Shown here piece by piece: positions 24,172 through 26,435 of a DNA stretch of 26,765 bases. How positions within the stretch are numbered: the first letter of the stretch is position 1; the number at the start of each line of letters is the position of its first letter. Position numbers and translations under genes: made by a program. Source of the stretch: Parachlamydiales bacterium. Its GTDB lineage: Bacteria > Chlamydiota > Chlamydiia > Chlamydiales > Parachlamydiaceae. The stretch is from positions 62,001-88,765 of the forward strand of contig JAGVJP010000041.1 of NCBI GenBank assembly GCA_020051075.1. Reading direction: 5' to 3'. The notes under the pieces were generated by a model. That model saw only the letters and a list, made by a program, of their open reading frames with translations. It was not told where the DNA came from and searched no databases.

Positions 24172-25116
24172 TTAATAAAACGACCAAGCAATGTTCAAGT
24201 TAAGCGCATAATCAAATTTACGTTGATCACCTGATAAATTCTGAATTATTGGAAGACTGATTCCGAATTGAACTAAGATTTTCTTTGAAGAAATCCATAA
24301 AGAAGGAGTGACATAGACTACATTTCCTCCAGAATTTTTGTCAAAAATCCCGTCGATTCTGTTTCTTTTGTTATATTCCCCATCGATTTCTATCATCCAT
24401 GCATAGATCCATCCTTGGGGACTCGGAATATTTCTTCCAAGTCCAAATTGATAAAGAAATTGTTCTCCGATTTTGGTCTTATTATCAGTACTTGTAAAAA
24501 CAGCCCCCTGCGCAGTAAACATAAACCAATCCACCATTGTGCGGTAATATGCTCCTCCTAAAAAAAGACTCGGTGAACCAAAACCCGTTGATGGATTTTT
24601 CTTGGTTGAACCTGTAGGAAATGTGATATTTCCTATCAACGTTGCTTGGTCAACATGTGTGAGAGTTTTTTTGTTATAAAATGCATACTCAAACTGTATA
24701 AAAAAATCTTCTAGCCCATTTGATTTGTTATGTCCATTTTTAATTATTGGAGTAAATGGAAGATTAAAAAAAACAGACCATTCATTAGTGATTCCAAATA
24801 GAATACCTGGAATAAGATCAATCGTCATTTTCTTATTTCCAATGAATTCATCTGCAAAAAAATATAACTGGATTTCACCTTTATCAATAATATTTCCTCC
24901 AAAACCAAAAAGAGCGGCAGGTTGCTGTGAAGTAGGCAATGCAAAATTGCCAACTTTAGGTGGCTCTGATGATTCTTCTGTTTTCATCTTATTGTTTTCA
25001 TTCGTTGCTTGTTCTTTGCACTCTGAATTATTACAATCGTTAATCTGTCCGTATGTTAGCGAGAAAGTAAAAAGGATAGTTAGAACCAAAAGTTTCAAAA
25101 TAGAAGATTTAATCAT
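24172..25116 (-). CDS. Predicted outer-membrane beta-barrel protein
   Basis: Signal peptide, alternating amphipathic strands, PTG and TGFGS turns, and an aromatic C-terminus LNLNIAWSFY. Confidence 0.7.
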   Translation of the reverse strand: MIKSSILKLLVLTILFTFSLTYGQINDCNNSECKEQATNENNKMKTEESSEPPKVGNFALPTSQQPAALFGFGGNIIDKGEIQLYFFADEFIGNKKMTIDLIPGILFGITNEWSVFFNLPFTPIIKNGHNKSNGLEDFFIQFEYAFYNKKTLTHVDQATLIGNITFPTGSTKKNPSTGFGSPSLFLGGAYYRTMVDWFMFTAQGAVFTSTDNKTKIGEQFLYQFGLGRNIPSPQGWIYAWMIEIDGEYNKRNRIDGIFDKNSGGNVVYVTPSLWISSKKILVQFGISLPIIQNLSGDQRKFDYALNLNIAWSFY

Positions 25117-25254
25117 ATAATTTTTTCATAAAAGGAATGGGCAAGAATCATATATCGTAAAAACAATTTTTAAAACAAGGAAATTCTTTTCTTTTGAGAA
25201 TTTCGTTTCGATTCCTTTGAAGAAATTTTGCGCGTGCATGTGATTTCTTTTACG

Positions 25255-25293
25255 TTGACATTATTTAGCCATCTATATACCATACGGGGGTAT
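25255..25293 (+). promoter_or_regulatory. Sigma70-type promoter overlapped by a CsoR operator
   Basis: TTGACA (25255-25260), 17-nt spacer, TACCAT (25278-25283). Operator ATACCATACGGGGGTAT (25277-25293) has ATACC/GGTAT inverted ends and a G-tract. Confidence 0.85.
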
Positions 25294-25317
25294 CCTATAA
25301 ATGAAGAAGGAATTTTT

Positions 25318-25623
25318 ATGACAGATAAGTCGTGTTGCCACAATCGGCCATCCCAACATCCCTCCCACCATAAGCAATTGTCTCATCTAAATAGAGTAAG
25401 TGGACAAATAGAGGGAATCAAAAAAATGATCGAAGATGGAAGATATTGCCCTGAAATCTTAAACCAGCTTCGCGCGATACGTTCGGCTGTTAAAAGCATT
25501 GAATTGCGCATTTTGGATACACATTTATCCTCGTGTGTAACTGAAGCTTGCTATTCTCAGGATCAAAATGAGCAAAAAGCGAAAATTGCCGAAATCCGCG
25601 AATTAATTAAAAGATTTGAATGA
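25318..25623 (+). CDS. csoR: CsoR/RcnR-family metal-sensing repressor, Cu(I)-type ligand set
   Basis: LNRVSGQIEGIKKMIEDGRYCPEILNQL...HLSSCV gives the Cys...His-x3-Cys fingerprint. Start is ATG 25318 after AAGGA; the upstream TTG extension covers the promoter. Confidence 0.9.
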   Translation: MTDKSCCHNRPSQHPSHHKQLSHLNRVSGQIEGIKKMIEDGRYCPEILNQLRAIRSAVKSIELRILDTHLSSCVTEACYSQDQNEQKAKIAEIRELIKRFE

Positions 25624-25643
25624 GTTCTTACATTGAGGTTTGT

Positions 25644-25895
25644 ATGACATTTAATAGTGAAATTTTTAATCCTAAAGATGTCAGCGTACGACTGTCTTAT
25701 GGTGTATTAAAAACGAGAATGTTGTTGTTTGGATTTATAGGAGTCTCTCTTGTAGCCATAGGATTTCTTAACATGGCACAATCTATTAGAGCTAATACCA
25801 GAAGCTGTTCTCAATTTACTCAAGACAGATACTGCGACTGTGGTAGAGGTTGCTTATGTGGAACTGGTTGTGGTTGCATCAAAAATAATCTGTAG
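25644..25895 (+). CDS. Small membrane-anchored protein with Cys-rich (3 x CxC) tail
   Basis: GAGG RBS. TM segment MLLFGFIGVSLVAIGFLNMA and tail CSQFTQDRYCDCGRGCLCGTGCGC. Confidence 0.7.
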   Translation: MTFNSEIFNPKDVSVRLSYGVLKTRMLLFGFIGVSLVAIGFLNMAQSIRANTRSCSQFTQDRYCDCGRGCLCGTGCGCIKNNL

Positions 25896-26132
25896 CCGTT
25901 CACAGGGTCCAGGCCTTCCAAAATGATGTTTGAAGGGATGAGATGCGAATAAATCGGCGAAATTCATAGTTTTTTTACTATATAATGAGCTGATTTCTGA
26001 AGTAGATCGCCATTCAAACCCATTTGGGAAGTGTCTACACACTCCTGAACGATTACAATAATCTGAAATAGCATTTTAGGAATGGCTAAAGCTGTTTTTA
26101 AAATCTTTTTCAACAACAAAAAGGAAAAAAAC

Positions 26133-26363
26133 ATGAAAATGTTATTTAGTTTTTTAGGGGCTTCTCTCATGGTAGCTACCTTTCTTTCAGCTGCTCCAAC
26201 AATGGTTAATTGTTATTGCCAGAATTGTGCATGCATACAAGAAAGACATTGCGGATGTTATTCCAGATCGGGATGTCAGTGTTCTTCGCAAGCTTGTCAA
26301 TGCGTGGAGAATTGTCAATGTGGTTATAATTGTTCTTGTGAAAGTAATTGTAGTTGCAGTTAA
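26133..26363 (+). CDS. Exported metallothionein-like Cys-rich protein (8 x CxC)
   Basis: AAGGA RBS. Signal peptide MKMLFSFLGASLMVATFLSA. 16 Cys in the last 50 aa. Confidence 0.8.
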   Translation: MKMLFSFLGASLMVATFLSAAPTMVNCYCQNCACIQERHCGCYSRSGCQCSSQACQCVENCQCGYNCSCESNCSCS

Positions 26364-26401
26364 GTTGTCAAAAAATTGCATTTACTATTAATTTTAATAA
26401 T

Positions 26402-26435
26402 AAAAACGTCTGGTTTTAAAAATCAGGCGTTTTTT
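26402..26435. terminator. Intrinsic, probably bidirectional terminator
   Basis: AAAAACGTCTGGTT...AATCAGGCGTTTTTT stem with A and T tails, between convergent genes. Confidence 0.7.

Follow-up and report, generated by a model that had tools for sequence, protein, structure and literature searches.

What does a CsoR-type repressor control when the two genes behind it encode small, cysteine-rich peptides and the DNA around it holds neither a CopA nor a CopZ gene? The question is raised by 26,765 nucleotides from a Parachlamydiales bacterium (GenBank assembly GCA_020051075.1, here G000), namely positions 62001–88765 of contig JAGVJP010000041.1 (here C93), which we call the window and whose right edge is the end of the contig. 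The answer that we favour, and consider probable, is that csoR and the two following genes, MT1 and MT2, would form an operon that copper induces and that encodes exported metallothionein-like peptides, in effect a periplasmic Cu(I)-thiolate buffer derepressed through CsoR.

The gene order is a beta-barrel gene (-), a 201-bp gap (25117–25317), csoR (+), MT1 (+), MT2 (+) and a terminator-like hairpin (+), and the contig stops 331 bp beyond the hairpin. A first-pass annotation, made from the letters of the sequence, had described a csoR gene with Cys/His/Cys ligands and an operator over its -10 box, two CxC-repeat genes downstream on the same strand followed by a terminator, and a barrel reading frame divergent from csoR across the gap; each of these was found in place, and both peptides are conserved as proteins. 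The features are as follows.

24172–25116, minus strand: outer-membrane beta-barrel with the COG4313/FapF fold, 314 aa (AlphaFold2 model and structure alignment); a neighbour, probably no fixed part of the unit
25255–25283, plus strand: sigma-70-type promoter, -35 TTGACA, 17 nt, -10 TACCAT (promoter scan, aligned homologous promoters)
about 25277–25293, no strand assigned: CsoR-type operator palindrome ATACC-N7-GGTAT over the -10 box (aligned promoters, matrix scan)
25318–25623, plus strand: csoR, 101 aa (PF02583, alignment to solved CsoR and InrS)
25644–25895, plus strand: MT1, 83 aa, 7 Cys, 3 CxC (family alignment, hydrophobicity)
25893–26056, no strand assigned: insertion of 164 bp resembling a miniature inverted-repeat transposable element (MITE), absent from homologous loci
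26133–26363, plus strand: MT2, 76 aa, 16 Cys, 8 CxC (family alignments, hydrophobicity)
26402–26434, plus strand: intrinsic-terminator-like hairpin closing the unit (consensus match only)

The csoR product matches PF02583 (E 3.6e-25), has a conserved Cys/His-rich N-terminal extension and, among NCBIfam models, is matched best by RicR at 71 bits, under that model's cut-off of 175. Its ligands Cys44, His69 and Cys73 align with those of the solved CsoRs and are kept in 23/23 distinct homologues (at least 63 % identity). The W-X-Y-Z ligand pattern is reported to be no predictor of the metal, and Cu(I) sensing is predicted from a second-shell Tyr (A) and Glu (B) with no acidic residue at C (PMC4235346; this and all other papers are cited from the parts of their text that were available). 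The second shell of the window's CsoR consists of Tyr43 (A) and Glu92 (B), with Lys89 at B-3 and no Glu or other acidic residue at the C position; Glu92 aligns with the Glu that lies 16 residues past the Z Cys of 4m1p, which is the Cys65/Glu81 offset of M. tuberculosis CsoR. Judged by these residues, csoR appears to carry the full Cu(I)-type fingerprint. The nearest solved relative is nevertheless the nickel sensor InrS (E 1.5e-15), followed by the Geobacillus-type and Streptomyces CsoRs, and His14, near the W position and kept in most homologues, aligns across a gap with InrS His21. Together with the CDF transporters and CzcA-like genes of some of the islands described below, and with an opening CxCxxCxC in MT2 whose spacing is that of the zinc metallothionein SmtA, this would fit a unit that handles Ni, Zn, Ag or Cd, or several of these, rather than copper. 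With Tyr at A, Glu at B, no Glu at C, and neighbouring ATPases that are of the Cu(I) type, we regard another metal as highly improbable.

Taken alone, the promoter and terminator matches are at chance level in the window (16 promoters against 12.1 in shuffled sequence, one terminator against 1.8). The -35 hexamer is, however, retained with unchanged spacing in the majority of nine aligned homologous promoters, and the operator columns ATAC..TAC.GGGGTAT are invariant in 9/9. The two highest operator-matrix scores in the genome (25.5 and 23.9) are those of two csoR promoters, both of which had helped to build the matrix, and the exact palindrome occurs five times in the genome against about 1.1 expected. 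Because the core columns are invariant and the two csoR promoters head the genome-wide scores, the operator is beyond chance. The same genome-wide scan found no wider CsoR regulon, the sites after the two csoR promoters scoring 17.2 or less. The csoR genes of other phyla are often preceded by similar sites. In one other genome (G240; L280:2905-3241), in which no csoR was found, a family peptide is immediately preceded by a CsoR-type operator without an intervening csoR, and a csoR copy in an assembly labelled Legionella (L067:1269-1577) has an internal stop codon.

The cargo consists of two related peptides. Basic residues at the start of MT2 are followed by a hydrophobic core and a cleavage region of small residues that ends near Ala20, and together these make up a predicted Sec-type signal peptide of about 20 residues, so that the first Cys, residue 25, lies in the mature part of 56 aa with 16 Cys, eight CxC and three aromatic residues. 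The mature part opens with the core CxCxxCxC-x4-HCGC and continues with CxC-G-x2-CxC repeats; small, very Cys-rich, with CxC/CxxC motifs and few aromatics, MT2 has the general sequence character of a metallothionein, as does MT1 with its 7 Cys and 3 CxC. MT1, a paralogue of MT2, consists of a basic N-terminal extension of 25 residues, a hydrophobic segment of 19 residues that may be a signal anchor or a long signal peptide, a tethered form being probable, and a C-terminal CxC-x3-CxC-x3-CxC domain whose six Cys are invariant in the six aligned MT1-type sequences. N-terminal hydrophobic segments were identified by a hydrophobicity rule in 22/22 MT2-type and 6/6 MT1-type sequences, and in 95 of the 107 family proteins, none longer than 140 aa, that were pooled from homologue and profile searches. 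A few members that look intact lack a signal and retain the Cys core (P0089, P0094, P0095, P0103, P0106, P0107 and L029:8060-8236), which suggests that cytoplasmic versions exist; the last of these, in G005, stands in tandem with two exported-type copies.

Neither MT1 nor MT2 matches a Pfam or NCBIfam family. A profile built from 22 members recovered 102 clusters at 50 % identity, though their taxonomic range rests on a single organism name (Chlamydiales bacterium) among the 20 clusters looked up, and six core Cys and one Gly are invariant in 74/74 aligned members. Close homologues of MT2 come from Candidatus Rubidus massiliensis, a Parachlamydiaceae bacterium and Chlamydiales bacteria, the nearest csoR loci from Parachlamydiaceae assemblies, which points to an environmental chlamydia, and the peptide family was found in 39 of the 400 Chlamydiota genomes scored, including 24 of the 46 within the bacterium's own family. 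MT2 is under strong purifying selection, as is csoR (dN/dS 0.05–0.17 in seven pairs, with dS saturated in an eighth). Structure adds little. The peptide profile gave no match to PDB sequences at E up to 1, and the mature peptide gave two at E up to 10, both to animal metallothioneins and not significant (E 0.58 and 3). The AlphaFold2 model of MT2 is of low confidence (mean pLDDT 65.4, pTM 0.39) and has almost no secondary structure; a Foldseek search with it, which is uninformative on fold, returned no match, and the best score of an Atlas search with MT2 (0.81, low recognition) is a lead only. The MT2 family is real, undescribed and unnamed.

The connection with CsoR recurs in other genomes. 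Two overlapping searches (csoR in 10/61 and 14/400 genomes) together located csoR at 19 places in 16 genomes of the Chlamydiota, and a family peptide lies 3' of csoR in 16 of them, in two cases (G049 and G257) across an inserted element. The three places that lack it are the distant ones, with 29–41 % identity (one in G208, two in G249). The 16 loci hold an MT1–MT2 pair (eight), a single MT2-type gene (seven) or three copies (one). The conserved linkage that the first-pass annotation proposed to look for is thus borne out in the Chlamydiota for the peptides; the barrel, considered below, does not share in it. In the order of the Legionella-labelled genome the family was found in that one assembly alone among 204 genomes. 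The second non-chlamydial order gave the same result, with the query assembly the only one among 121 genomes, and the two contigs concerned may be misbinned or transferred. No spread independent of the chlamydiae was found, since 76 of the 80 csoR loci of a species-wide scan had no downstream peptide by the filter used. Other arrangements were seen in that material: Methylophilaceae-type assemblies (L081, L093, L094, L096 and L099) have csoR with a perfect operator followed directly by a conserved signal-peptide protein of 213–217 aa, which had no Pfam or NCBIfam match in the one scanned, and gut alphaproteobacterial assemblies (L080, L085–L087 and L089) have a 173-aa open reading frame (ORF) with a metallothionein-like Cys-rich N-terminus just upstream of csoR.

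The neighbourhoods point to copper. CopA, a multicopper oxidase, Csp or CusA lies within 6 kb of nine of the 16 csoR-peptide loci, the other seven, including that in the window, standing alone in the sequence covered. G002 and G033:C3 have copA and csoR pointing away from each other, with the operator between them. The plasmid of Criblamydia sequanensis, which also carries arsenic-resistance genes, has the MT1–MT2 pair behind a csoR that diverges from the gene for a heavy-metal P-type ATPase and lies within a tolC/cus/copper oxidase/Csp cluster; neither peptide ORF has an annotated feature in that record, the gene table of which is known to be incomplete. For the related Rubidus plasmid of 80.9 kb, copper-resistance genes have been reported, with no mention of a metallothionein in the available part of the paper (PMC4791399). 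The six partner ATPases examined all have the Cu(I)-type motifs CPC, YN and MxxSS, and the two scanned both exceed the TIGR01511 cut-off. Within G000 itself there are three CopA-type ATPases, two of them close to paralogous peptides: a second copy of the csoR-MT1-MT2 module lies 3.1 kb from a CopA gene on C131, and an MT2 paralogue on C84 begins 13 bp past a CopA stop codon, inside an oxidase/TolC/CusA cluster. The first-pass remark that the window contains no CopA or CopZ is therefore true of the window and misleading for the genome, where the one HMA match found in a search for CopZ-like candidates lies inside an ATPase frame of 800 aa. The replacement of efflux by the module that this remark implied was considered and rejected, as CopA exceeds the TIGR01511 cut-off elsewhere in five of the six other genomes with a stand-alone module (the exception is G053) as well as being present in G000. 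Hence, the module accompanies efflux and does not replace it.

Possible transcripts appear among assembled contigs from metatranscriptome runs of one study, which are unstranded and may include DNA. In one run a contig of 1036 nt, 100 % identical to the window, covers 25353–26358, starting within csoR and reaching the end of MT2, and a second run yielded three identical pieces within 25357–26486. These contigs are compatible with a single csoR-MT1-MT2 transcript, though the support is weak. No contig of the RNA runs covers the barrel, which is uninformative. The comparison draws on the runs that remained after 16 of the 20 listed sequencing runs proved to hold only small shares.

On these grounds we propose that apo-CsoR, as expected from its family, would bind the palindrome that overlaps the -10 box of its own gene and repress csoR, MT1 and MT2, and that cytoplasmic Cu(I), bound at Cys44, His69 and Cys73, would release it. 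MT2 would then cross the inner membrane by Sec and lose about 20 residues to become a periplasmic peptide of 56 aa and 16 Cys, while MT1 would be tethered by its hydrophobic segment, or cleaved, with its six-Cys domain facing outwards. From their context, the thiols of both peptides could bind Cu(I) in clusters and so buffer copper that enters from outside or is pumped out by CopA, and this buffer may work alongside the multicopper oxidase and Cus/TolC export of the same islands.

Besides the relationship to InrS, several points weigh against this proposal. Metal binding, export and induction are inferred from sequence, and signal peptides were called by the hydrophobicity rule rather than by a trained predictor. 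MT1 is missing from eight of the 16 csoR-peptide loci and is weakly constrained (dN/dS 0.35–0.93 in five pairs, a sixth being saturated, though pN is smaller than pS in 6/6). No operator match was found in the copA regions of contigs C84 and C97. None of five copper-marker genes lies within 6 kb, in the sequence covered, of 21 of 42 family loci with the full core, a count that leaves out eight further matches without it, and for this reason the family may have another ancestral role; the Cys count is higher at the loci in a metal context (median 15 against 11, 21 loci each, from related genomes that are not independent). Finally, oxidation of free thiols is to be expected in the periplasm. DsbB was not found in the genome in a search whose positive control worked, though there is a weak VKOR-type match just over the cut-off.

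A rival reading is that the peptides are disulfide-bonded or redox-active envelope proteins, a thiol sink or cross-linker comparable to the Cys-rich envelope proteins of chlamydiae, induced by copper for the protection or repair of envelope thiols and not for metal storage. The invariance of the six-Cys core, which suggests a defined small domain, and the half of the loci that lie outside metal islands would both suit such a role, as would the four genomes of one genus (L034, L268, L272 and L276) in which the peptide gene adjoins one for a metallo-beta-lactamase-rhodanese, in 3/4 with a 1-Cys peroxiredoxin-like gene as well, a sulfur/redox context. The comparison with the chlamydial envelope protein OmcA (Chlam_OMP3, PF03503) speaks against it: MT2 has no lipobox, its first Cys follows the predicted cleavage site, a lipobox-like pattern occurs in only 4/107 family proteins, and PF03503 matched 0/22 members at E up to 1 (a genome search with PF03503 also found nothing, but its positive control was silent too). 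Moreover, the members in copper islands carry extra CxC repeats, and dense runs of CxC are typical of metal-thiolate peptides. A redox function is, in our opinion, unlikely.

Bufferins raise a different possibility, that the peptides are precursors of ribosomally synthesised and post-translationally modified peptides (RiPPs), matured in trans by the MNIO of the genome into bufferin-like thiooxazole metallophores. The bufferins of Caulobacter vibrioides are Sec-exported Cys peptides that bind excess periplasmic copper (PMC11626156), and their pattern is the combination of Sec signal, cysteines and copper stress, with the Sec signal assigned here by the hydrophobicity rule; an MNIO gene is present in G000 and in 5/5 relatives tested. 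Bufferins differ in needing a clustered MNIO (DUF692) and DUF2063, in binding through thiooxazoles and in their control by SigF (PMC11626156), and no such genes lie at the peptide loci. Among all the loci covered, an MNIO query matched only the six MNIO loci, all of which have signal-peptide ORFs of their own upstream, the five that were profile-scanned held no family member, and DUF2282 was not found in the genome (the positive control worked). It is therefore very unlikely that MT1 and MT2 are such precursors. The MNIO loci are of interest in themselves: in 6/6 genomes (C83:3698-7315 (-) and L289–L294) MNIO (PF05114) and a partner gene lie behind one, two or three ORFs that have signal peptides and short Cys-Gly motifs, possibly a separate bufferin- or oxazolin-like system with unnamed precursors.

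Among other known systems, RicR-MymT of M. tuberculosis has the same kind of regulation, with an autoregulated CsoR-family repressor, a promoter palindrome and a small peptide, rich in Cys, that binds Cu(I) (PMC3944814, PMC7558416), but MymT, compared here by its description, is cytoplasmic (PMC3944814), whereas the chlamydial peptides have export signals, lie beside the repressor and are tandem paralogues with 7 and 16 Cys. Csp1 is, like the proposed buffer, an exported Cys-lined Cu(I) sink, though a rigid four-helix bundle exported by Tat (PMC7558416). Csp-type genes occur in the same chlamydial islands. No RR occurs in the first 15 residues of 28/28 family peptides, there is no DUF326 match, and the MT2 model contains no helical bundle. 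SmtA and BmtA share small size, a high Cys content and CxC motifs with the family, but PF02069 matched 0/22 members at E up to 1 and nothing in the genome, the positive control having worked. They reportedly handle zinc and contain a zinc finger, and they are not known to have a signal peptide. Thus the unit would be regulated in the manner of RicR-MymT and would act in the same compartment as Csp1 and the bufferins, but it belongs to none of these groups.

The barrel gene divergent from csoR was the fourth part of the module as first described. Its AlphaFold2 model (pLDDT 88.6) aligns with FapF (5o65, Z 25.2, root mean square deviation 2.4, 238 residues) and with the COG4313 channel (4rl8, Z 24.9, 2.0, 232 residues), the next match being at Z 18.6 and the copper porin PcoB at Z 12.2; Foldseek placed it with the same COG4313/FapF structures (E 1.7e-10 and 7.2e-9). 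The N-terminal plug is shared, though sequence identity is only 15–16 %. Pfam scans of 42 family members gave chance-level matches only, with PF13557 (Phenol_MetA_deg) in 0/42 at E up to 0.1, although PF13557 is assigned to 34 % of the members of an Atlas cluster neighbouring the barrel; the window's barrel has no Pfam or NCBIfam family, and its profile gave one chance match to PDB sequences.

Since FapF is a peptide secretion channel, the barrel might be a working part of the unit, for example a way out through the outer membrane for MT2 or a channel for Cu-ligand complexes, co-regulated from the same operator in the way that one operator serves the gap at the copA-divergent loci. A same-family barrel (43–47 % identity) does lie directly upstream of csoR-MT1-MT2 in assemblies labelled Bacteriovoracaceae (L066) and Legionella (L067) and in a metagenome contig (L163), and a further one is 6.6 kb from a family peptide in G263. 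In a tree of 44 barrels, those of L066, L067 and L163 branch among chlamydial sequences and not with the window's barrel, and a single origin of the linkage was recovered in 0/200 bootstrap trees (midpoint root, with no one-clade test). As the two barrels belong to separate clades, adjacency to csoR arose twice. The orientation is unlike in the two cases, however, the barrel being on the same strand as csoR in the latter three, and none of the other 40 barrels has csoR or a peptide in its vicinity (flanks 1.5–6 kb). Barrel homologues are present in 66/401 Chlamydiota genomes, yet one adjoins csoR at just 1/16 chlamydial csoR-peptide loci (one of the eight genomes holding both genes), none was found in 7/14 csoR genomes, and the second module copy in G000 lacks one. 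No His, Met or Cys is invariant in the family. In two DNA runs of one study, which represent mixed populations, a contig 99 % identical over 25244–26696 is unlike the window to the left, indicating a junction near 25244, and an ankyrin-barrel stretch of 87 % identity is on a separate contig.

A second independent juxtaposition exceeds what a uniform-chance model gives, but both genes are mobile and share islands, and we consider a functional link quite unlikely; that a FapF-like barrel was recruited twice beside csoR and passes the peptide through the outer membrane is more doubtful still. The barrel is most likely no fixed part of the unit and a chance neighbour here. What survives of the module first described is thus a copper-linked operon headed by csoR with two envelope-targeted metallothionein-like peptides, and not a fixed set of four parts.

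As part of the same overall explanation, we think it probable that the cassette is mobile and was separated at this locus from its efflux genes. The second full csoR-MT1-MT2 copy, with the same operator, is at C131:11055-11926 (-), though as the listed contamination of the genome is 5.7 % one copy could be foreign, and the third MT2 paralogue (C84:13809-14039 (-)) is without csoR. The MITE-like element between MT1 and MT2 has terminal inverted repeats and a 9-bp target duplication (25884 and 26057), folds as one long hairpin and is missing from 4/4 aligned homologous loci; about ten further copies with 84–89 % identity are present in the genome and related ones in metagenome contigs. A degraded transposase remnant (23437–24165 (-), weak DDE_Tnp_1 match, E 0.001) lies at the 3' end of the barrel gene, a stretch that a related contig skips. 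Elsewhere in the window are an ankyrin-repeat protein (22253–23164 (-), PF12796, E 1.3e-20) and a Ser-rich ORF of 599 aa with no family match (134–1933 (-)), both of which look like the host-interaction proteins typical of environmental chlamydiae.

In the literature covered, with most subscription journals outside its scope, we found no description of the family or of a natively Sec-exported bacterial metallothionein. SmtA, MymT and the Pseudomonas metallothioneins are not reported as exported in the available parts of the relevant papers (PMC7558416, PMC7387436, PMC8636135, PMC3944814), that on PmtA making no mention of export in the part available (PMC8636135). Cys peptides with Sec signals are reported to number in the thousands near MNIO genes, and the supplements of that paper could bear on the novelty of the family (PMC11626156). 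Of the known periplasmic copper sinks, Csp1 relies on a rigid fold exported by Tat and the bufferins on enzymatic modification of thiols, and a plain Sec-exported polythiol would, if true, be a third solution. The chlamydial envelope relies on disulfide cross-links, which raises the question of how 16 free thiols persist in the oxidising compartment of a phylum with a disulfide-linked envelope. As protozoa kill phagosomal bacteria with Cu and Zn (PMC5967200), a role against amoebal copper intoxication is plausible, though environmental metal stress is equally compatible. More tentatively, and with rather less than even confidence, we suggest that this is an unnamed family of unmodified Sec-exported metallothioneins, soluble and tethered, that keeps Cu(I) in thiolate clusters within the periplasm or further out, is controlled by CsoR, is spread by megaplasmid-type elements and aids copper survival in protist hosts. 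The proposed operon would also give the chlamydiae a defined copper regulon, with sensor, operator and cargo, that annotation has missed.

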